Position numbers and translations under genes: made by a program | Notes under the pieces: model-generated | What the model saw: only the letters and a program-made list of their open reading frames with translations | Database searches by the model: none | What the model was told of the DNA's origin: nothing | Shown here: positions 1 through 57,244 of the stretch, in pieces | Layout of the letters: each line of letters starts with the position of its first letter | Numbering within the stretch: position 1 is the first letter of the stretch | IMG/VR virus record: IMGVR_UViG_3300044838_000003 | Coordinates: 1-57,244 of that record | DNA: 57,244 nucleotides | Direction: 5' to 3' (one strand) | DNA from: a virus | Taxonomy: Duplodnaviria > Caudoviricetes

Positions 1-148
1 CCTTGCAACCCCTGGGAGCCCAACATGGGCCATCGCCACGGTGATGGCACCACCACGTACCCGAACGGTGACGTGTTGACAGATGACGGTGAAGAGGCGT
101 AAGGTATCACTCATGGCAAAACCAACACACCAGCGGATGGCGATGCTC
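1..148. repeat. Terminal direct repeat (assembly overlap), copy 1; matches 57097-57244
   Basis: 1-148 aligns to 57097-57244 with 3 mismatches (positions 3, 19, 22); 23-148 is identical. Indicates a circular or concatemeric assembly. Confidence 0.95.
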
Positions 149-3409: not shown

Positions 3410-3952
3410 ATGAGCGTAGCAACAGCAAGCAAAGAAGCCTACGGCCGGATGCGGAGCGTCCCGCCCAAAGAGCACCCGGTCTACAAGTTCCTGAAGACCT
3501 TCGGGACGGGAACCGCCGGCTACTCAAACCGCCAGATCGCGGCGATCATGGGTCGCCCGATCAACACCATCACGCCGCGCATCTTCGAGCTGCGCGAGGC
3601 GGGGGTTGTCGTCCTCGCTGGCAAGCGCAAGGACACGTACTCGGGCATCGAGGTGTCACACTGGCGCATCGCTACCGCGGCCGAGGAGGCCGCGTACAAA
3701 GCGTTCACGACGCCACCCGTGCTGACCGACGAGGAGATCGCCAAGCTGCCGCGGACGTGGCTGCACTTGGCCGACATCCCGGAGGGTGTCATCGTCAAAG
3801 AGACCACGGGTGCTGGATGGCACTGGCTGCGCCGCGCCAACGGCGACTTCGGTCACCGCACCGCCAACGTGGAAGACACGACGTTCGGTGGCTGGCTGCC
3901 GCTCGGACGTCAGGAGCACTTCTACGGGCCGATGGTCGAGGTGCTCGCATGA
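3410..3952 (+). CDS. Winged-helix DNA-binding protein with a C-terminal accessory module
   Basis: YSNRQIAAIMGRPINTITPRIFELREAGVV is wHTH-like; C-terminal W-x2-L-x-D-I-P...GPMVEV module. Confidence 0.7.
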   Translation: MSVATASKEAYGRMRSVPPKEHPVYKFLKTFGTGTAGYSNRQIAAIMGRPINTITPRIFELREAGVVVLAGKRKDTYSGIEVSHWRIATAAEEAAYKAFTTPPVLTDEEIAKLPRTWLHLADIPEGVIVKETTGAGWHWLRRANGDFGHRTANVEDTTFGGWLPLGRQEHFYGPMVEVLA

Positions 3953-4062
3953 CCTCGTACCGGCTGTACGTCGCCTATCAGGCGCTCAAGTCTTTCGCTG
4001 TCACGATGGTCGTCTTCGACGGCCTCGTGCTGATCTACCGACTCAGGACCGGGAGCCTGTGA
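3949..4062 (+). CDS. Tiny membrane protein (37 aa)
   Basis: ATGA and GTGA overlaps; one hydrophobic segment. Confidence 0.5.
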   Translation: MTSYRLYVAYQALKSFAVTMVVFDGLVLIYRLRTGSL

Positions 4063-4367
4063 AGGGTCGAGAGCTGCGGAAGGTGTTGACGTTCATCGCA
4101 GCCATCGCCTGGGTGTGGTGGATGGTCTGGGCGCCCGCCAGCGCCCACGCCCAGCCGCTCTGTGAGCACCGTTCGGCCGAGCACGCCGCCCAGTCTCACA
4201 CCACCCGCGAGGGTGACTCACGCTGGCACGTAGCGCACGGCCAGCTCCCAACGTGCGGCCTTGATCAGAGCAGTGACGACCGGGACAAGGGACACGGAGA
4301 CGAAGGGTCTCCGCGACCCCATCGGGACCGTCCGGGTTTTCACTGCACTCTTCACGGCTGCGGATAG
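4059..4367 (+). CDS. Secreted or membrane-anchored His/Cys-rich protein
   Basis: Signal-like N-terminus ending ASAHA; Cys and His rich; GTGA overlap. Confidence 0.6.
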   Translation: MKGRELRKVLTFIAAIAWVWWMVWAPASAHAQPLCEHRSAEHAAQSHTTREGDSRWHVAHGQLPTCGLDQSSDDRDKGHGDEGSPRPHRDRPGFHCTLHGCG

Positions 4368-23051: not shown

Positions 23052-23323
23052 TGTGGCCCAACAACGATCCGGAGATGATGCAGATACTCTCCGACCACCC
23101 GCTGCCCATACCGGACAGCTTCACCAAGCTGCCGATCCAGAAGATCGGTGTGGTCGTCAACGTGTCCACCGAGGTGTTCGAGCAGGCCGAGAAGGACCGG
23201 CTGGACTTCCTGTTCTACATGACCCACCGCGAGGAGATCAAGGCCCAGAACGCAGCGTTCGCCACGTACTGGCCTAACCACCCGTCCTTCGACAACCCGA
23301 ACATCGTGAGAGGATACAACTGA
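23051..23323 (+). CDS. Hypothetical protein
   Basis: TGATG overlaps. Confidence 0.65.
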   Translation: MWPNNDPEMMQILSDHPLPIPDSFTKLPIQKIGVVVNVSTEVFEQAEKDRLDFLFYMTHREEIKAQNAAFATYWPNHPSFDNPNIVRGYN

Positions 23324-23499
23324 TGAGGATCAAGAAACTACGCCGCGAGCTGAAGCAGGAGCTGAAGGACCACGGCAACATCGAGGTCGAGATGGCCCAG
23401 TACGGCGGCTACGGCAACGAGGCCCGCGTCGATGGTACCGAGCTGCTGCGGCGCTACAACTACGGTACCGAGCTGCCCCCGGTGCTGCGTCTCTGGTGA
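23323..23499 (+). CDS. Small hypothetical protein (58 aa, MRIKKLRREL...)
   Basis: Translated by hand; TGATG overlap, GAGGA RBS. Confidence 0.55.
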   Translation: MRIKKLRRELKQELKDHGNIEVEMAQYGGYGNEARVDGTELLRRYNYGTELPPVLRLW

Positions 23500-23503
23500 T
23501 CCG

Positions 23504-23656
23504 ATGAGGCCCAGTACGGACTACGAGTACCGGTTCGACATACCCTACGTGGTGATCGACTGGTACCGTCCCAACCAGGTTAGGCCCGTCTTCACCACCA
23601 TCCGTCCAAAGCCCACCAGGGGAAAGCACAGTAAACGGCCCTGGTTTCTCTTCTAG
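23504..23656 (+). CDS. Small hypothetical protein (50 aa), last gene of the early arm
   Basis: ATG 4 nt after the upstream stop. Confidence 0.45.
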   Translation: MRPSTDYEYRFDIPYVVIDWYRPNQVRPVFTTIRPKPTRGKHSKRPWFLF

Positions 23657-23712
23657 CCCTTCGCCCCACCAGGGCGAATGGCGATACGAGGGGCCACAAG
23701 CCGCTCTAACGC

Positions 23713-23756
23713 AAGAAACCCCCTCCCGGACCACATTGGTCTGGGAGGGGGCTTTT
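23713..23756. terminator. Bidirectional intrinsic terminator between the two convergent arms
   Basis: AAGAAA-CCCCCTCCCGGACCA-cat-TGGTCTGGGAGGGGG-CTTTT. Confidence 0.85.
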
Positions 23757-23768
23757 CGTCGTTCTGGG

Positions 23769-23912
23769 TTAGGAGGGGTTGGGCAGGGACGCTATCGCAG
23801 CCTCGACGGCTGCCCGTACTTGCTCGACCGTGAAGAGCTTGTTGGGGTCCGGGGCGGGAACATCGTTCTCATCCAGCGGGACGCTGGTCATCGGTAGCTC
23901 GTGAAGGCCCAT
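23769..23912 (-). CDS. Small hypothetical protein (47 aa), last gene of the structural arm
   Basis: Translated by hand (MGLHELPMTS...LPNPS); TGATG overlap with the minor tail stop. Confidence 0.55.
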   Translation of the reverse strand: MGLHELPMTSVPLDENDVPAPDPNKLFTVEQVRAAVEAAIASLPNPS

Positions 23913-47590: not shown

Positions 47591-48954
47591 GGTGCATCTC
47601 CGTAGAATACTTGGTCACGCACCGTGCGGCCCGACGAGGGCCAGTCCGGGTGACCTGGGCCGACCTGTAGCACCAGGTATTCGAGCAGGTCGCGCTCGGT
47701 GGTGTTGTTGCGGTCGGAGACCCACTTCAGGAAGGCGACCGCCATCTCGTGGCGAACGTCTACCGCGGGAGGCGGGACTACGACGGGCGGCGGGGCTTGC
47801 GACTCTCCACCGGCTAGCCAGTAGAGGAACCGCTCGGTGAAGTAGTCGGCCGGGAAGTTCGGGCCAACGTCGGTGTGAGATCCCCATCCGAAGACCTCGG
47901 TCACCCACTCGTGGTCGGTGATGCCGCTGTCGTCGGCGGTGCTGTCTCCGTAGTCGCCACCGAAGCCGATGACCTTCGCCTTGATGCTCGGGTACTTCGC
48001 GATGTCTTGTACCGCGTACCAGGCGAACACGTCGATGACGTTGCCCGCATACTTCAGCCACTCTTCGCGAGACCAGCTCGCGTTGGAGCCAGCGAAGCAG
48101 TAGTTGATCGCGATGTGGTTCGCGTTGCCGACAGACCACGAGGCCACGTCGGTATCCACGCCGTCAACGATCGTCACGCCGCCGTCGCGGGCCTGAGAGC
48201 CGTAGAGGTGGTAGGAGACCTCGACCGAGGGGTTGGCGCAGTAGTTCCCGAGACGCTCCGCAGCGTCGTCGGGCGGCGGGACCGGGTTACCCTCTTGGGT
48301 GTGGAGCGCGATGATCCGCGGGAGGTTGCCGTCGCGGCTCTCGTTGTTCGGGGACCAGATCGGGAACTCGTTGAAGCTGGGGCGCTTGCTGCTAGCCATA
48401 GGAGGCTCCTTGGGTGGATCGGCGGGCTGGGGTGCTGGTTCCGGGGGCTGTGTGGGCGCTGGGGCCTCTGTCAGGACCCCGACCAGTAGAGCGTATGCGT
48501 CGTCCCATTCCTCGGCGTAGCGGCCTCTGTAGGCCGGGGCGCACTGCTGGACATCTGCTACGCGCTGTCCTAGCGCGTCCCTGCCCATCGAGTAGTCTAG
48601 CCCGTCCGGTAGCCGGGAGAGGAACACGTCGGTAGACTTTTCCAGCGACATGCGTGATTCCATCGTGCCCCACCAGTCGTTCTGTGGTGAGGGGACGGGG
48701 CCTGCGACCTTGTTCTGCTGCTGGTAGTAGCCTACCGACCGGCCGTCGTCGGACTCCGAGTCGTAGTCGAAGTTCTTCGAGGACGGGTCCGAGGCGTTCC
48801 ACGGACACCAGTATCCGGACTCGACCGCCACGCAGGATAGCGCGGCGTTCGCGTAGACCAGTCCCAGTCCGCGGGCCACGGCCACGTCGTAGATTACCTT
48901 TGCGACCTGTTCCGGGGTGCGGAGGGGCGTGTCGGCCTTCCAGATGAAGTTCAT
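47587..48954 (-). CDS. lysA: Lysin A (lysozyme-like N-domain, amidase-2 domain, C-terminal binding domain)
   Basis: VESG...DGRSVGYYQQ; LHTQEG, VSYH, WSVGNAN, DH...HTDVGPNFP. Confidence 0.9.
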   Translation of the reverse strand: MNFIWKADTPLRTPEQVAKVIYDVAVARGLGLVYANAALSCVAVESGYWCPWNASDPSSKNFDYDSESDDGRSVGYYQQQNKVAGPVPSPQNDWWGTMESRMSLEKSTDVFLSRLPDGLDYSMGRDALGQRVADVQQCAPAYRGRYAEEWDDAYALLVGVLTEAPAPTQPPEPAPQPADPPKEPPMASSKRPSFNEFPIWSPNNESRDGNLPRIIALHTQEGNPVPPPDDAAERLGNYCANPSVEVSYHLYGSQARDGGVTIVDGVDTDVASWSVGNANHIAINYCFAGSNASWSREEWLKYAGNVIDVFAWYAVQDIAKYPSIKAKVIGFGGDYGDSTADDSGITDHEWVTEVFGWGSHTDVGPNFPADYFTERFLYWLAGGESQAPPPVVVPPPAVDVRHEMAVAFLKWVSDRNNTTERDLLEYLVLQVGPGHPDWPSSGRTVRDQVFYGDAP

Positions 48955-48974
48955 GGTGATCCTCTCGGGTTAAG

Positions 48975-49047
48975 CTCCCTACCGTGGACTCGAACCACGA
49001 ACCGCGAGATTAACAATCTCGTGCTCTGCCAATTGAGCTAGCGGGGA
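48975..49047 (-). tRNA. tRNA-Asn (GTT)
   Basis: TCCCCGC/GTAGGGA acceptor stem, AGCTCAATTGGCAGAGC D-arm, CGAGA-TTGTTAA-TCTCG anticodon arm, GGTTCGAGTCC T-arm. Confidence 0.93.
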
Positions 49048-49075
49048 TGAGCCCCTTGCGGGGCGAAGTGGGGCG

Positions 49076-49147
49076 CGGGGGATCAAGGACTCGAACCTCG
49101 TTCTGCGGCTTTGGAGACCGCGGTCTTACCGGGTAAACGAATCCCCC
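49076..49147 (-). tRNA. tRNA-Trp (CCA)
   Basis: GGGGGAT/ATCCCCC acceptor stem, GCGGT-CTCCAAA-GCCGC anticodon arm, GGTTCGAGTCC T-arm. Confidence 0.92.
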
Positions 49148-52677: not shown

Positions 52678-53163
52678 CTAAGCCTGCTGTTGAGCCCGCA
52701 GGCGGTCTTCGTAGACCTTGGAGATTGGGATGACCTTGGCTTCTTCCCCGACTTCTCCGGTGCTACGATCGACTTCTATCCGCAGTCGGCGTCGTTCTCC
52801 CTCTGTTACAGCGATCGAGGTTAGCATCTGCCAAACTGCGGCGACCATCGTCGGGGATACCTGGCCGACCTTCATCTTCCCATCTTTGTCCTCGTACGGC
52901 CGAAGCTGCTTATCGAGGAGGTGGAGAGCGGTGAGCGCGGTCATCCAGTCCGAGGGCTCGTAATACTTGGCTTGGCCGGATTGTCCGAGGGACTCCCAGA
53001 ACGCTTTGGTGATGTTCTGGGTCAGCATGTTCGGGAATTGTCGGAGGCTGGGCTGTTTTACTTCGCCCTCCATCGCGACCTTATCGACGGACTCGATTTT
53101 GTCTTTCGCGACGTGACCGGCTAGTTGGTCTACACGCTTCGGAATGGGTCCGGTGAGGTTCAT
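52678..53163 (-). CDS. terS: Terminase small subunit (L5 gp5-like)
   Basis: GPIPKR, SGQAKYYEPSDW, TEGERRRLRIE. Confidence 0.85.
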   Translation of the reverse strand: MNLTGPIPKRVDQLAGHVAKDKIESVDKVAMEGEVKQPSLRQFPNMLTQNITKAFWESLGQSGQAKYYEPSDWMTALTALHLLDKQLRPYEDKDGKMKVGQVSPTMVAAVWQMLTSIAVTEGERRRLRIEVDRSTGEVGEEAKVIPISKVYEDRLRAQQQA

Positions 53164-53179
53164 AATGGGACTCCTGGTC

Positions 53180-53470
53180 CTACATTCGGCCTGGGTGTCT
53201 TTCCACTGGACGGAGAGCCCGTTGCCGTTTCTGGGTGCGGGCATTTACGCCCTGGGCCGACGAACGATCGTCGTGGCACGGCTTGCAGGCCGCGCGTAGC
53301 TTGGTGTGGTCGTCTTTATCGCCGTAGTGGTCGATCTGGGTCGCCCGATGGATACACCGGGGTCCGCGGATCTGACACAACCCGCGAGCTGCCTTCATCG
53401 TAGGCTTTCGGTAGGCCGACTCCCAGTCGGCCGGCAGCTCGCTGTGACGACGGCTATCGGCCTCCCACAC
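53180..53470 (-). CDS. HNH endonuclease (packaging-associated)
   Basis: LPADW, CQIRGPRC...IDH...DDH..L...CKPCH; GGGAGG RBS; adjacent to cos. Confidence 0.88.
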   Translation of the reverse strand: MWEADSRRHSELPADWESAYRKPTMKAARGLCQIRGPRCIHRATQIDHYGDKDDHTKLRAACKPCHDDRSSAQGVNARTQKRQRALRPVERHPGRM

Positions 53471-53842
53471 AGCAGACCTCCCTAGGCGGCGCCTCGCGCC
53501 GCATGGAGCGATGCGCAGCATCGCGACCTTCGCTTCGCTCCGGTCTTTTATTGCCCATCCAATAGAACCTAACGACCGACCCGCGAAAAGCGGGTCGCGA
53601 CGGGAGGAGGTCCGAAGGACCTCCGACCTTTGGGGTCTCCGGTCCTTCGGAGGGGTTCACCAGAACCCCGACTGGTAGGTCGTTCGGTCGCTTGTCGCTC
53701 CCTCACTCCCTCAATGGTTAAGTACGCGTTAATAGATTTTCCAGAGCGGTGCTCTCATCTCACTATGTGGGAAGTTGCAGGTCATACCCCCCGCCTGGGC
53801 TGGGTTCAGTAGACCGAACCCAGGGGGCCAGGGTCAGGCGCA

Positions 53843-53852
53843 TAACCGACCG
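53843..53852 (-). other. cos site (predicted 3' overhang CGGTCGGTTA)
   Basis: Minus strand reads CGGTCGGTTA-TGCG, matching the L5/cluster-A end sequence; lies between the divergent arms, upstream of HNH and TerS. Confidence 0.85.
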
Positions 53853-53859
53853 GTCAGCC

Positions 53860-54180
53860 CGCAAGCGGGTAAGGGATACCCCCCGTGGGGTACTGCCACC
53901 CCCATACCCCCTCCGACCTGCGCTTATGCTCTGCCGGCTACTCCGCCTGGACACTGCCCACCCTGCCCCACCAGGGCATACCCCACCGAAGGGGTATGCA
54001 CCAGCAAACAACCCTGCATACCCCCTGCCCACCATGCCTACCCCTGCCACCAGTGCATACCCTGCCCATACCCCCTGCTACCAGCACCGATACCCCTGCC
54101 ACTACCCCCTTGCCCTGCCCTGCCACTAGCCGAGGGCGGCTACCCCCGACCTAGCACTACCCCCTATGCAAGGGGTATCT
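53860..54180. repeat. Degenerate (A)TACCCC(C)TGCC repeat tract
   Basis: Many TACCCC/CTGCC units; extreme C skew on the plus strand. Confidence 0.8.
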
Positions 54181-54342
54181 GTAACCGAGGGGTAAGCGAA
54201 AAATTCCTACCTGGGAATATACCCCGATCTATGTGTAACCATGCTGGTCCAGGCCCCGTCGTTGGGAACACCGAGTTATCTGTAACCGACCATTACAAAA
54301 CCACTTCCCACCAGCGTCTTTACCCCAATGTATCCGATAAGC

Positions 54343-54371
54343 TTGCTTAGCTGGCCATGGGGGACTACCTT
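54343..54371 (+). promoter_or_regulatory. SigA-type promoter P1 (TTGCTT-17-TACCTT)
   Basis: Correct 17-nt spacing; TANNNT -10. Confidence 0.55.
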
Positions 54372-54377
54372 GGTGAT

Positions 54378-54612
54378 TGTTCGACCAGCACGGCACAACT
54401 TCACAGAGGCAATCAAGACATTCCCTGAGGGCATGTTCCGAAGTGCGGCCGAACCTAGCGCAACACAATGGCTAGGCAGAGTAGGCAAGGGCGAGGTTCG
54501 ACCTCGATAGCGCGGAACGGCAGATGGTACCCGGATGGGAGCGTCGGATCAGGTGAGACCTTCGCAACGCGGGTCTTAATGGGCCGCTACGCACATAGCT
54601 ACCAGCCACAAT
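54378..54612 (+). ncRNA. Candidate structured ncRNA 1
   Basis: No credible ORF; GCGGCC/GGCCGC long-range pair enclosing CCTAGC/GCTAGG, GAGG-TTCGA-CCTC and GAGACC/GGTCTT hairpins. Confidence 0.5.
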
Positions 54613-54619
54613 CCCAAGT

Positions 54620-54648
54620 TTGACAAAACGTGAAACGGCTGGTAGTGT
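54620..54648 (+). promoter_or_regulatory. SigA-type promoter P2 (TTGACA-17-TAGTGT)
   Basis: Near-consensus elements and spacing. Confidence 0.8.
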
Positions 54649-54654
54649 TCTCCA

Positions 54655-54995
54655 CAGATCGAAAGTTTCCACCAGAACGGCGGCAACGCGGAAAGGCGAT
54701 CCGGGAAACCGGTGATGGCCCGTTCACAGTTAGACCTTTGACAATTGAATCAACGGATACCGGCTAGGGTTGGCGCCCAATGATCCGGAGTAGTCTAGCA
54801 ATGATCGGCCTAGGTCACGGCGTGGTAGTGAGTACCGAGAGGGAAAACACGCTTCCGTGGTAGGACTGGATCGCAGCCGCGAGAGCGGAGTAGCTAGGGT
54901 TGATTCATACATACGCTTGACGGTGCAAAGGTTGGCGTGGCTTAACCACGTCATTCGGAAGTATTCGCGACAGGTTCGATTCCTGCGGCACCTCT
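54655..54995 (+). ncRNA. Candidate structured ncRNA 2 / leader RNA with GNRA hairpins and a tRNA-like 3' module
   Basis: GAACGG/CCGTTC domain, TGAATCAAC/GTTGATTCA domain, four GNRA loops, CAGG-TTCGATT-CCTG T-arm. Confidence 0.65.
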
Positions 54996-55000
54996 CCCGC

Positions 55001-55029
55001 TTGACAAGATGTCAGGCACTAGGTAAGGT
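55001..55029 (+). promoter_or_regulatory. SigA-type promoter P3 (TTGACA-17-TAAGGT), leaderless
   Basis: ATG 55036 lies 7 nt after the -10. Confidence 0.8.
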
Positions 55030-55035
55030 ATGGGA

Positions 55036-55248
55036 ATGGCACAACGACAGATAATCGCCCGCATTCCAGGTATGTCCACTACGGGCCAGCGTCACGATTT
55101 GCTGATCGAACGCACGGCGGATGACATGATCATGGTGACCGTTCTAGGTGCTGATGGTAAGAAGCGTCACGCTTCGGCCATCATTCTCCCCGGAGCTTTG
55201 ACCGACGAAGTTCAGGCAGAGAAGTATCGCACGGACAGGAACCTGTGA
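55036..55248 (+). CDS. Small early protein (70 aa)
   Basis: Leaderless start at the predicted TSS of P3. Confidence 0.7.
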   Translation: MAQRQIIARIPGMSTTGQRHDLLIERTADDMIMVTVLGADGKKRHASAIILPGALTDEVQAEKYRTDRNL

Positions 55249-55265
55249 TACCTCGATAGGTACTA

Positions 55266-55332
55266 GCGGATGCTGGCTAGGCGAGCGACTGTAAGAGCGC
55301 ATACCCTAGAGGGTTCGACTCCCTCATCCGCA
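55266..55332 (+). ncRNA. tRNA-like element (pseudo-tRNA)
   Basis: GCGGATG/CATCCGC acceptor stem, AGGG-TTCGACT-CCCT T-arm, CTGTAA loop, no canonical D-arm, 3' ACGA. Confidence 0.55.
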
Positions 55333-55448
55333 CGACGGCCAAACGGCCGGCAATTGATGGAAATTAGGTGGTACCATGCTCTGGATACTCTACGCGTTCG
55401 TAGTTATCATGGTCTCTGGCGCCGCTTACCTGAGTGTGAGGTAGAGGG

Positions 55449-55694
55449 ATGGCGTATTCGCCAGATAAGGTAACGATCGAGATCGAAGCGATCGTTGATC
55501 ATGTCCAGGAATTGCAGCACCGTAGCGATCGCTTGGCAGCGATCATGCAGCGTGCATCGCGAGGGTTGGACTTCTCGCTGTCTCAGCAAGAATTGACCAA
55601 AGGCTTCCCGAACAGCGAGTACTGGACCGGTAAGGTTGACGCCTACACGGCGTTACTCGAAACCGGGTTCGGCTTGACAAGCGATGAGAACTAG
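55449..55694 (+). CDS. Small early protein (81 aa)
   Basis: GAGG RBS; fills the gap before P4. Confidence 0.6.
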   Translation: MAYSPDKVTIEIEAIVDHVQELQHRSDRLAAIMQRASRGLDFSLSQQELTKGFPNSEYWTGKVDAYTALLETGFGLTSDEN

Positions 55695-55702
55695 GCTAGG
55701 TT
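55674..55702 (+). promoter_or_regulatory. SigA-type promoter P4 (TTGACA-17-TAGGTT), leaderless
   Basis: ATG 55709 lies 7 nt after the -10. Confidence 0.8.
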
Positions 55703-55708
55703 AGGGTT

Positions 55709-56287
55709 ATGAAATCACACACCGAAGCGTTGGCCCGCCAAGGGCTCACGATGAACCAGGTCCGCAACAACATCCGCGCATACCTCAACCACGCCTCACC
55801 CGAGGACATCAACGCCGGCATCGGCTGGTATGAGGACGCGATGAGTCTTGGCGAGTGGATGGCGAAGACGTGTCACGTCTCGCTGGACCACGCCGCCGTA
55901 GCTATCGCTCACCTGTCACCACGTACTCGCTGGTCTGAGAATGTGCGTCTCGCCAAAGACTTGGCCGAGACGGGTGACGCATTCGGCACGATCCGAGGTC
56001 ACGTTACTCGGGCCAAGGCGGCTCTGGCCGCTGACGACCCGTGGTCCACGTTCGGTAAGGCACCGAAGACACGATCCTTCGCGGCCAACATCCGCGGTGA
56101 CCTGTCGGCCGTTACGGTTGATGTTTGGGCATCGAGAATCGCAGGTGTCTCGGAACAACAGCTCGGAAGGGTTGGCGTCTACGAAGCCATCGCCCACGCT
56201 TACAGGCTTGAAGCACGCCGTGCAGGTATCCTACCCGCACAGCTCCAAGCAATCACATGGATAGTAATCAGAGGAGCAGCGAAGTAA
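55709..56287 (+). CDS. Conserved early phage protein (DUF7178-like, possible HhH/glycosylase-related fold)
   Basis: GWY, LSPRTRW..N, PKTRSF..NI, VTVDVWA, PAQLQAITW. Confidence 0.75.
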   Translation: MKSHTEALARQGLTMNQVRNNIRAYLNHASPEDINAGIGWYEDAMSLGEWMAKTCHVSLDHAAVAIAHLSPRTRWSENVRLAKDLAETGDAFGTIRGHVTRAKAALAADDPWSTFGKAPKTRSFAANIRGDLSAVTVDVWASRIAGVSEQQLGRVGVYEAIAHAYRLEARRAGILPAQLQAITWIVIRGAAK

Positions 56288-56881: not shown

Positions 56882-57198
56882 TGAGTAAACTCAGCACAGC
56901 GGTCTATGTAGGCCTGGCTGCCGGCATTCTTGTCGGAGTGCCGTTGGCGATCGAGGGAACACCGATCGAGAACATCACCGAAGATAGTCCCGACTGGGAT
57001 TGCGTGATGGACGGTAACCACGTCTGCGGTCCAAACAACCCCCAGGGCAAGCCTGCCGCTTGTTACGACGACGGAGGGGTTATGGTCCAGGTTTGGCCGT
57101 GCAACCCCTGGGAGGCCGACATGGGCCATCGCCACGGTGATGGCACCACCACGTACCCGAACGGTGACGTGTTGACAGATGACGGTGAAGAGGCGTAA
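56878..57198 (+). CDS. Membrane-anchored Cys-containing protein
   Basis: N-terminal TM; EDSPDWDCVMDGNHVCG. Confidence 0.7.
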   Translation: MMSKLSTAVYVGLAAGILVGVPLAIEGTPIENITEDSPDWDCVMDGNHVCGPNNPQGKPAACYDDGGVMVQVWPCNPWEADMGHRHGDGTTTYPNGDVLTDDGEEA

Positions 57199-57244
57199 GG
57201 TATCACTCATGGCAAAACCAACACACCAGCGGATGGCGATGCTC
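57097..57244. repeat. Terminal direct repeat (assembly overlap), copy 2
   Basis: Matches 1-148. Confidence 0.95.

Follow-up and report, generated by a model that had tools for sequence, protein, structure and literature searches.

A probable structured RNA module at the early right-arm locus of an uncultivated L5-like actinophage

The closest described counterpart of the RNA considered here is the Pleft RNA of the Cluster A mycobacteriophages L5, D29 and StarStuff, which Dedrick et al. (2017; PMC5712189) describe as a stable and very abundant transcript of about 500 nt that contains no open reading frame (ORF) of more than about 30 codons and is processed into species of 100-400 nt with a common 5' end. 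The same paper reports that the RNA is toxic when cloned, that its gene-proximal part is refractory to deletion, and that about 90% of the L5 Pleft transcripts end before gene 89; in D29, a sharp RNA peak lies immediately upstream of gene 89 (10.1101/2025.11.21.689395). In this study we analysed the complete IMG/VR virus record IMGVR_UViG_3300044838_000003 (57,244 bp, hereafter the window), which comes from a soil actinophage resembling Cluster A (L5-like), and in it a domain on the plus strand at 54746-54907, for which a reading of the letters alone (the sequence-only reading) had proposed a functional structured RNA. The domain is probably real, a lineage-specific structured RNA module belonging to a known, poorly understood class. 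Our preferred explanation, which we hold to be just on the probable side, is that it is a structured, lineage-specific module of an early plus-strand non-coding RNA of this Cluster A-like actinophage and corresponds to the Pleft RNA of L5 and D29.

Other described systems resemble parts of this locus. In MALAT1/mascRNA, RNase P cuts at a 3' tRNA-like structure and so sets the 3' end of the upstream RNA. The likeness is that of a structured RNA directly followed by a mimic of an acceptor stem plus T-arm, whereas MALAT1 is eukaryotic and shows no homology, and the Rfam match to the mascRNA type (RF01684), which is below threshold, belongs to an element of a relative, L006, not to the window. HK022 put and lambda nut are likewise structured RNAs placed just downstream of an early promoter; in the window, however, the downstream gene has a promoter-like site of its own, and we know of no sequence or structural match between the domain and either of them. 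The bacterial Y RNAs called YrlA contain a tRNA-like domain and occur also in M. smegmatis and in some mycobacteriophages (PMC4201824). They resemble our locus in combining, within one non-coding RNA, a long closing stem and a tRNA-like module that bears a T-arm, and in coming from one and the same group of hosts and phages; the tRNA-like module of YrlA, however, lies inside the closing stem, while the candidate in the window comes after the domain. The YrlA model (RF02553) gave 0 matches in the whole record at E <= 0.001 and none in 53300-55500 at E <= 10, and there was no Ro60/Rsr gene among the 35 ORFs that were scanned.

Compensatory changes in two hairpins of the domain

With RNAfold the plus strand of the domain takes a single nested fold of 51 pairs at -53.4 kcal/mol, the parts of which are as follows.

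54746-54907, plus strand: structured domain of 162 nt, a 9-bp clamp (H0) enclosing H1, H3, H4 and H5 (RNAfold)
54746-54754 / 54899-54907, plus strand: H0, a perfect 9-bp clamp of TGAATCAAC and GTTGATTCA, read from the sequence
54760-54763 / 54785-54788, plus strand: H1, CCGG/CCGG, bounding the 5' sub-domain 54760-54788 and enclosing H2
54767-54770 / 54775-54778, plus strand: H2, GGGU/GCCC with loop UGGC, from the RNAfold register and the variants
54795-54799 / 54893-54897, plus strand: CTAGC/GCTAG, read from the sequence
54803-54812 / 54861-54872, plus strand: GATC..CCTA/TAGG..GATC, read from the sequence
54816-54820 / 54855-54859, plus strand: CACGG/CCGTG, read from the sequence
54835-54842, plus strand: CC-GAGA-GG, apical part of H4
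54803-54872, plus strand: H4, long irregular central hairpin of the predicted fold
54877-54888, plus strand: H5, CCGC-GAGA-GCGG with a GNRA tetraloop, from the fold and the variants
54738-54745, plus strand: TTGACAAT, left edge of the block conserved in relatives, with a -35-like TTGACA and no TANNNT 16-18 nt away

All helices listed by the sequence-only reading, including the perfect 9-bp closing helix, are present in the sequence, and RNAfold reproduces and nests nearly all of them, with mean helix probabilities of 0.51-0.96 when the domain is folded in isolation. GCTAG at 54763-54767 could alternatively pair with CTAGC at 54795-54799. The minus strand folds more weakly (-44.4 kcal/mol, z = -1.08), and six G-U pairs favour the plus strand, which is the only one that G-U pairs and GNRA loops fit.

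The evidence that carries our conclusion comes from natural variants. Three public runs were found to contain sequence of the window, of which X1 contains every word that was sampled and is probably the source; X2 and X3 are other metagenomes with small shares. Variant contigs were aligned to the window at 80% likeness, and differences within about 30 nt of the ends of an aligned piece are not listed, so that the clamp H0 lies outside the comparison. In X3, an independent soil metagenome, contigs match only from 54732/54738 to 54916/54923 and the flanks are unlike; the block is the longest part of the 1.1-kb region common to X3, being 179 nt long at about 92% identity, against less than 80% in the flanks. 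Over 54738-54916, record 6 of X3 (295 nt) differs from the window at 13 positions, of which 10 are listed, and by one 1-nt insertion; to the left it continues for 115 unlike letters. Record 5 (460 nt) matches 54732-54768, carries 67 other letters in place of 54769-54823 and matches again over 54824-54923, after which 99 divergent nucleotides lead to a stretch identical to 55023-55053. Records 7 and 8 are exact over 54887-54923 and 54887-54916, respectively, and then continue into two different rightward sequences, so that at least two distinct right flanks exist among the X3 contigs.

Within record 6, G54769C together with C54776G turns a G-C pair of H2 into C-G, and in H5 both G54879C with C54886G and C54880A with G54885T (U in the RNA) are compensatory. 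Against the fold predicted from the window alone, six of the 10 listed substitutions thus form three compensatory pairs and three fall at unpaired positions (G54773A in the loop of H2; G54793A and A54875T in linkers, the latter beside the inserted T), and the last, T54794G, opens the terminal G-U pair of H3. In simulations, at least three compensatory pairs arise with a probability of 1.5e-5 if the changes are placed at random and of 5.5e-5 if they are clustered as observed. Record 5, moreover, lacks precisely the two bases of one H5 pair (54879 and 54886), while the GAGA loop at 54881-54884 is identical in both records; a GNRA loop is thus kept in H5 as its closing stem covaries. Because of these compensatory pairs, the paired deletion and the invariant GAGA loop, we conclude that two hairpins of the domain are under selection. 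H1 does not vary in record 6, and the H0 clamp, CTAGC/GCTAG and the long central hairpin are invariant in the informative data, which neither supports nor refutes them.

The sequence-only reading had named uncompensated disruption of pairing as what would speak against a structured RNA; the changes in H2 and H5 are compensatory, and the end pair of H3 is the lone break among the changes listed for record 6. One of its helices must be given up, since TTGG-cgc-CCAA (54770-54773/54777-54780) is in the wrong register: the variant G54773A would break a pair there, and the linked G54769C and C54776G fit GGGT/GCCC.

Beyond the block, the 5' leader predicted for the window (54655-54737) is not common to the X3 relatives, as their contigs diverge left of 54732/54738. 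The left flank of record 6 resembles 54378-54399 of the window (region 54377-54408), relative to which the window has about 340 extra nucleotides, 54400-54737, holding the promoter-like site P1 described below and the GCGAGGTTCGACCTCG hairpin. The early non-coding region appears, from these alignments, to be built of shuffled cassettes.

Coding status, predicted transcription and position of the locus

The domain sits in an ORF-poor stretch of about 1.5 kb (53522-55029) between the HNH gene at the head of the minus arm and the first early ORF of the plus strand, and it is non-coding. ORFs overlapping it (45-74 codons) score -0.28 to -0.32 per codon under a model trained on the long genes of the phage, versus +0.15 to +0.21 for the neighbours; the 74-aa ORF on the minus strand has no PHROGs match; and the variants carry frameshifting indels, namely one 1-nt insertion and two 1-nt deletions. 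The features that bear on its transcription are these.

54620-54648, plus strand: promoter-like site P1, with TTGACA at 54620-54625, a 17-nt spacer and TAGTGT at 54643-54648; predicted start at about 54654-54656
54655-54737, plus strand: predicted 5' leader, with a CCGG-GAAA-CCGG hairpin at 54701-54712 that is present in the fold of the transcript
55001-55029, plus strand: promoter-like site P2, TTGACA-17-TAAGGT
55030-55248, plus strand: first early ORF, probably leaderless from the ATG at 55036; coding score +0.18 per codon; phrog_2246, E 1.7e-14

The plus strand carries all 6 sites of the pattern TTGAC[AG]-16..18-TANNNT found in the window, where 0.68 would be expected; two of them are one site in the terminal repeat, and the unique sites of the form TTGACA-17/18-TANNNT are four, also on the plus strand (54620, 55001, 55674, and 76 = 57172). 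At 55001, 55674 and 76 (= 57172) an ATG stands 6-7 nt past the -10 element, which implies leaderless early mRNAs, and leaderless mRNAs are common in mycobacteria. P1 lies about 90 nt upstream of the domain and is followed by no ATG or GTG, so that its transcript would probably be non-coding. P2 and a further site, P3, have CTTGACAAG and ACTAGG in common ahead of the -10 element. Covariation at 54769 requires that the RNA start upstream of 54767, and the domain would be transcribed from P1. TAGGGT at 54765 was considered as a promoter of the structured RNA and rejected, because the covariation at 54769 needs an upstream start and the motif is common in the window (17 times on the plus strand and 5 on the minus strand).

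Regarding the position of the locus, the genome ends of three Cluster A relatives align to 53845-53892 of the window, and Veracruz, HINdeR, Timshel and Sheen each have, 1.2-1.6 kb from their right end, a homologue of the ORF at 55709-56287 (phrog_3842) that is 54-58% identical. These two homologies make the locus of the domain equivalent to the right end of L5. What had been called a function unknown is thereby narrowed to the site at which Cluster A mycobacteriophages make the Pleft non-coding RNA; the function itself would have to be read from that correspondence. As in L5, the domain lies between a right-end early promoter and the first right-arm ORF, on the strand of the early genes, in a region that holds no credible ORF and is interspersed with TTGACA-type sites. 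L5 too has a GAGA-capped hairpin near the 5' end of its RNA (1350-1336 of the L5 locus, L107), a tRNA-like element stands at the 3' end in L5 and a candidate one in the window, and the distance to the genome end is nearly equal: 1,071 nt from the L5 element to the L5 end, and 1,077 nt from TLE1, the candidate of the window, to the genome-end homology. The differences are that neither sequence searches nor the covariance model linked the domain to any Cluster A locus and that the predicted transcript is about 340 nt long as against about 500 nt; in addition, abundance, expression, toxicity and essentiality are known for the L5/D29 RNA, whereas the phage of the window is known from metagenomes alone. 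Labels of gp88/gp89-like for the neighbouring ORFs were dropped at BLASTP E values of 7.4 and 0.067, and so were L5-like stoperators, as there is no over-represented 10-13-mer and the TTGAC flanks have no common 13-bp consensus.

Searches of 53400-55400 and 53500-55100 by megablast and blastn gave no match at 1e-5 in 50,697 phage records, which hold no DNA-level relative of the window; 54732-54923 at E <= 10 gave five of these records, all at E >= 2; an exact 21-nt stretch of the domain had 0 matches in IMG/VR; and no family of Rfam 15 (riboswitches, ribozymes, 6S, ROOL, GOLLD and others) matched within 54746-54907 at the gathering score or at E <= 10. A search anchored on the protein of the ORF at 55709-56287 retrieved 32 IMG/VR, 70 metagenome and 3 genome loci, none with the domain; the best identity to that protein was 60%, on a short contig (L057), and full-length relatives reached up to 58%. 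The ORFs at 52678-53244 and 55030-55248 had no relatives in IMG/VR.

tRNA-like elements of L5, D29 and the window

Comparison with L5 and D29 drew our attention to the 3' end of their RNA, and similar candidates occur in the window.

L5 51,135-51,226 (locus L107, 836-927, minus strand): tRNA-like element with an acceptor-like 6-bp stem GGGUAG/CUACCC, a D-like hairpin GCGAU-GGAAUG-AUCGC, variable hairpins and a T-arm CGGG-UUCGAUU-CCCG
D29 47,976-48,084 (locus L108): the element of D29
54922-54992, plus strand: TLE1, with a 5-bp acceptor-like stem GGUGC/GCACC, a hairpin GGCGUGG-CUUAA-CCACGUC and a T-arm CAGG-UUCGAUU-CCUG
55266-55331, plus strand: TLE2, after the first ORF, with a 7-bp acceptor-like stem GCGGAUG/CAUCCGC, an internal hairpin and a T-arm AGGG-UUCGACU-CCCU

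The Pleft RNA of L5 ends in such an element, whose predicted fold is as expected. Copies occur in 44 phage records, in most cases without annotation. In L5 about 90% of the transcripts stop in the region of this element, which also coincides with the apparently essential RNA peak called 'leftmost'; the element of D29 ends 46 nt before gene 89, and the distance to the next gene in L5 and D29 is 46-50 nt. In an alignment of nine L5-type copies retrieved by BLAST, one acceptor pair and three pairs of the D-like hairpin change on both sides, and a covariance model built from three short copies (R2) recovers 6 of 6 long copies on which it was not trained, at E 1.9e-7 to 8.1e-6. No Rfam family describes the element, the best being tRNA-Sec at 22.1 bits (E 0.29), and the L5-type tRNA-like element is our own grouping, no published family. 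We did not find it described; 'tRNA-like' is absent from the main text of PMC5712189, whose Additional file 2 contains an alignment that might show it. Pair counts for the T-arm in a second alignment (A2; 98.6% paired, four of five pairs changed on both sides) were discarded as circular, as its 14 rows had been preselected for T-stem pairing.

TLE1 begins 15 nt past the domain, with TTGACG at 54917-54922 overlapping its start, and, like the L5 element, is followed at once by the next TTGACA site and ORF. Its fold z is -2.13 and the relaxed pattern that finds it is expected 0.375 times per window; the tRNA-Sec model gives 17.3 bits (E 4.6) to TLE1 and 16.2 bits to TLE2, the gathering score being 47. 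TLE1 is without the GGAAUG loop, and TLE2 is not listed by R2 at E <= 10. TLE1 is a weak element whose support is positional, and we treat it as a candidate. In the X3 relatives, GGAUGGAAUGAUCC and GAGUGGAAUGA, motifs found in the D-like hairpin of the L5 type (GGAAUG loop), occur in the sequence 3' of the domain, so that the order of domain, then tRNA-like element, would recur although the element differs. TLE2 is a much better element than TLE1, its strict pattern being expected 0.065 times per shuffled window. It is identical in contigs of X2, which have 81 other letters in place of the 89 nt before it and become homologous again exactly at 55266, and the ORF overlapping it (55270-55473) scores -0.55 per codon. 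Neither ARAGORN nor Rfam RF00005 at the gathering score called TLE1 or TLE2 a tRNA, a tRNA-Asn and a tRNA-Trp being the sole calls. The domain itself was also considered as a large tRNA-like structure and rejected, for there is no T-loop beside the closing helix.

Shorter elements of 41-57 nt, most of them 41-46 nt, recur between early genes in Cluster A phages and in prophages of Salinispora, Actinoplanes and Catenuloplanes. They consist of a 6-7-bp acceptor-like stem, a short linker (often ATGGTCGYAG) and then a T-arm, like 'top-half' minihelices of tRNA, at the following places.

L006 2683-2724
L007 2672-2713
L010 1743-1783
L098 2479-2523
L105 4064-4106
L106 4105-4161
L106 4655-4698
L107 128-173 (minus strand)

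These minihelix-like elements could punctuate the early transcripts. For the 42-nt element of L006 the best Rfam match was mascRNA-menRNA with 26.5 bits, below the gathering score of 42.5 (E 0.18). RNase P recognises minihelices made of acceptor and T-arm.

Weighing the explanations, and the genome around the locus

As we picture the correspondence to the Pleft RNA, host RNA polymerase would start at P1 (at about 54655), and the 83-nt leader, the 162-nt domain and TLE1 would be transcribed together. The tRNA-processing machinery of the host would then recognise TLE1, with RNase P cutting on its 5' side at about 54921/54922, and a leader-plus-domain RNA of about 265 nt would be released, whose closed, GNRA-capped helices would give nuclease resistance and let it accumulate. 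The released RNA would act in trans early in infection, probably by binding protein. The global fold, the cleavage by RNase P, the stability and the action in trans are inferred; that the RNA binds protein instead of pairing with mRNA is a guess, made because no extended complementarity worth reporting was found.

Several results weigh against this explanation. The density of nested helices and GNRA loops, taken by the sequence-only reading as typical of functional RNA, is at chance level: the fold of the domain has z = -0.61, with 47 of 200 dinucleotide shuffles equal or better, and the window has 58 perfect 9-bp inverted repeats with loops of 20-200 nt where 20 shuffles gave 42-80 of them (mean 63). 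Once the domain is folded within a longer or the full predicted transcript, helix probabilities are 0.05-0.5, and the predicted 341-nt transcript as a whole has a fold z of +0.83. Comparative support covers two of about 10 helices (H2 and H5) and comes from two short contigs of one run. The three runs found consist of DNA contigs, with no RNA run among them. No U-tract terminator follows, and the P1 module is missing upstream of the domain in X3 record 6, so that the promoter assignment may not hold in all relatives. Blastn and nhmmer over 105 related loci found nothing overlapping 54746-54907, only weak matches in the flanks (E 0.26-0.91). A covariance-model search, by which the sequence-only reading proposed to check the structure, was run with a single-sequence model (R1) over 98 of the 106 loci (the window and L002-L099) and found the window only, the next best hit having E 0.36; the compensatory changes came from the X3 contigs. 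TLE1, with an acceptor stem of 5 bp and a T stem of 4 bp, is weak, and the L5-type model R2 gives 15.3 bits (E 1.2) on 54929-54993. The ORFs flanking the locus are not homologous to L5 gp89 or D29 gp88, and judged from sequence the equivalence to the Pleft RNA is positional, not by descent. The proposal of a functional structured RNA therefore stands in part, on the covariation of H2 and H5, the GAGA loop, the conserved block, the non-coding status and P1; the argument from helix density fails, and the global 160-nt nested architecture is so far a thermodynamic prediction.

The same observations could fit an RNA that acts in cis, a leader whose co-transcriptional fold controls read-through or processing from P1 into the early genes as an attenuator, a put-like antiterminator or a processing platform. 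The domain does have a promoter-like site ahead of it and the first early ORF behind it; its fold depends on context; internal repeats (GCTAGGGTTG twice, family D8, and GGAGTAG twice) permit alternative pairings, as in a switch; and control of read-through is plausible in view of the L5 Pleft transcripts that stop before gene 89 (about 90%, according to the main text of PMC5712189). However, the first ORF has in P2 its own strong promoter-like site for a leaderless mRNA and does not need read-through, the different flanks in relatives suit a self-contained unit better than the leader of one gene, and 54600-55100 contains no terminator-like site, the sole one found being at 53288, which leaves such a leader rather unlikely. 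The block might otherwise function as DNA, being a cassette of promoter- or operator-like sites that is exchanged by recombination and whose hairpins are palindromic protein sites or by-products. TTGACA at 54738, TAGGGT at 54765 and 54895 and TTGACG at 54917 would be such sites, and the conserved block starts at a TTGACA and stops at or just past the next TTGAC; the TAGGGT-bearing stretch 54887-54916 is identical in X3 records 7 and 8, and the decamer GCTAGGGTTG occurs twice. In the equivalent region, moreover, clones of L5 and relatives of D29 show deletions by recombination between stoperators, as PMC5712189 reports in its main text. Yet pairing kept while both arms change, together with a paired deletion, is a signature of RNA structure, and a G-U pair of H2 is possible only in plus-strand RNA; TTGACA 54738 has no TANNNT at 16-18 nt, TAGGGT is common and non-specific, and a scan of 35 of the ORFs in the window revealed neither a repressor nor an integrase. 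We regard a DNA cassette as quite improbable.

We put the absence of any function at a similarly low level. The locus would then be an ordinary spacer, and the compensatory changes would have arisen by chance or by template switching in short palindromes, a view to which the chance-level fold energy and inverted-repeat count lend themselves, as do the facts that there are only two variant contigs and that both covarying stems are local 4-bp palindromes of the type homogenised by quasi-palindrome correction. Against it stand the probability of about 2-6e-5 for three compensatory pairs, the paired deletion, which adds a fourth event from another contig, the invariant tetraloop, and the identity of about 92% over a block of 179 nt between flanks below 80%. 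A miniature mobile element, either a miniature inverted-repeat transposable element (MITE) or one like the MPME of mycobacteriophages, with 9-bp terminal inverted repeats, is highly improbable: perfect 9-bp inverted repeats do stand at both ends and flanks do differ in relatives, but the homology runs past the left repeat by 8-14 nt and past the right one by 9-16 nt, there is no target-site duplication (..CAAT / TACA..), the element is single-copy in the window and absent from 98 related loci, and inverted repeats of 9 bp occur at chance frequency.

The correspondence to the Pleft RNA may be extended to a more speculative proposal, which we think unlikely to hold as a whole: that the early non-coding RNAs of L5-like phages are modular, with interchangeable structured 'cargo' domains, one of which is the 162-nt domain, fused to a tRNA-like handle. 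The handle would be read by host RNase P, and possibly by CCA-adding or modification enzymes or Ro60/Rsr, and would be the toxic, essential RNA of the 'leftmost peak'; the cargo, once freed, would be a stable RNA able to tie up a host protein or to counter a defence.

The first 148 nt of the record are repeated at 57097-57244 with an identity of 145/148 (mismatches at positions 3, 19 and 22), so that the unit genome is about 57,096 bp; relative to the physical ends, which comparison with relatives places at about 53,845, the record is permuted. On the minus strand, the tRNA-Asn and tRNA-Trp genes (48974-49147) adjoin the lysis and structural genes, and a scan of 35 ORFs against PHROGs identifies L5-like right-arm genes on the plus strand (DNA polymerase I, ribonucleotide reductase, DnaB helicase, primase and endonuclease VII) and a domain like that of recombination directionality factors at 3786-4367. 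The 35 scanned ORFs include no integrase or repressor family, at 23052-23911 or elsewhere in the record, the remaining ORFs lying outside the scan; the phage may be lytic, or its immunity genes may be within the unscanned ORFs. The stretch homologous to the right genome end of Cluster A (53845-53892) is followed on its inner side by a block (53893-54170) that is pyrimidine-rich on the plus strand and has many short direct repeats (CATACCCCCT three times, CCTGCC(A/C)..ACCCCCT three times and sequences like CACTGCCCACCCTGCCC three times); the 191-codon ORF over it has a non-coding score, and the repeats may be packaging or DNA-binding sites. CTAG occurs 13 times in 54400-55750 against 2.4 per kb genome-wide, with up to 7 in other 1-kb bins, and no conclusion is drawn from this.

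The Pleft RNA of L5 and D29, toxic when cloned and in part essential, has been without known structure or mechanism in the account given by the main text of PMC5712189. The present analysis indicates that an uncultivated relative has a different RNA module at the same place, that at least two hairpins of this module are held by selection, and that phages exchange this module as a whole. It was through the comparison with L5 and D29 that a tRNA-like element came to light at the 3' end of their own RNA. If it is true, the modular reading of handle and cargo would be the first mechanism for the Pleft RNA. Together, these results turn an abundant RNA of unknown role into a set of testable proposals, concerning RNase P, the acceptor and T-loop, and the partners of the RNA.

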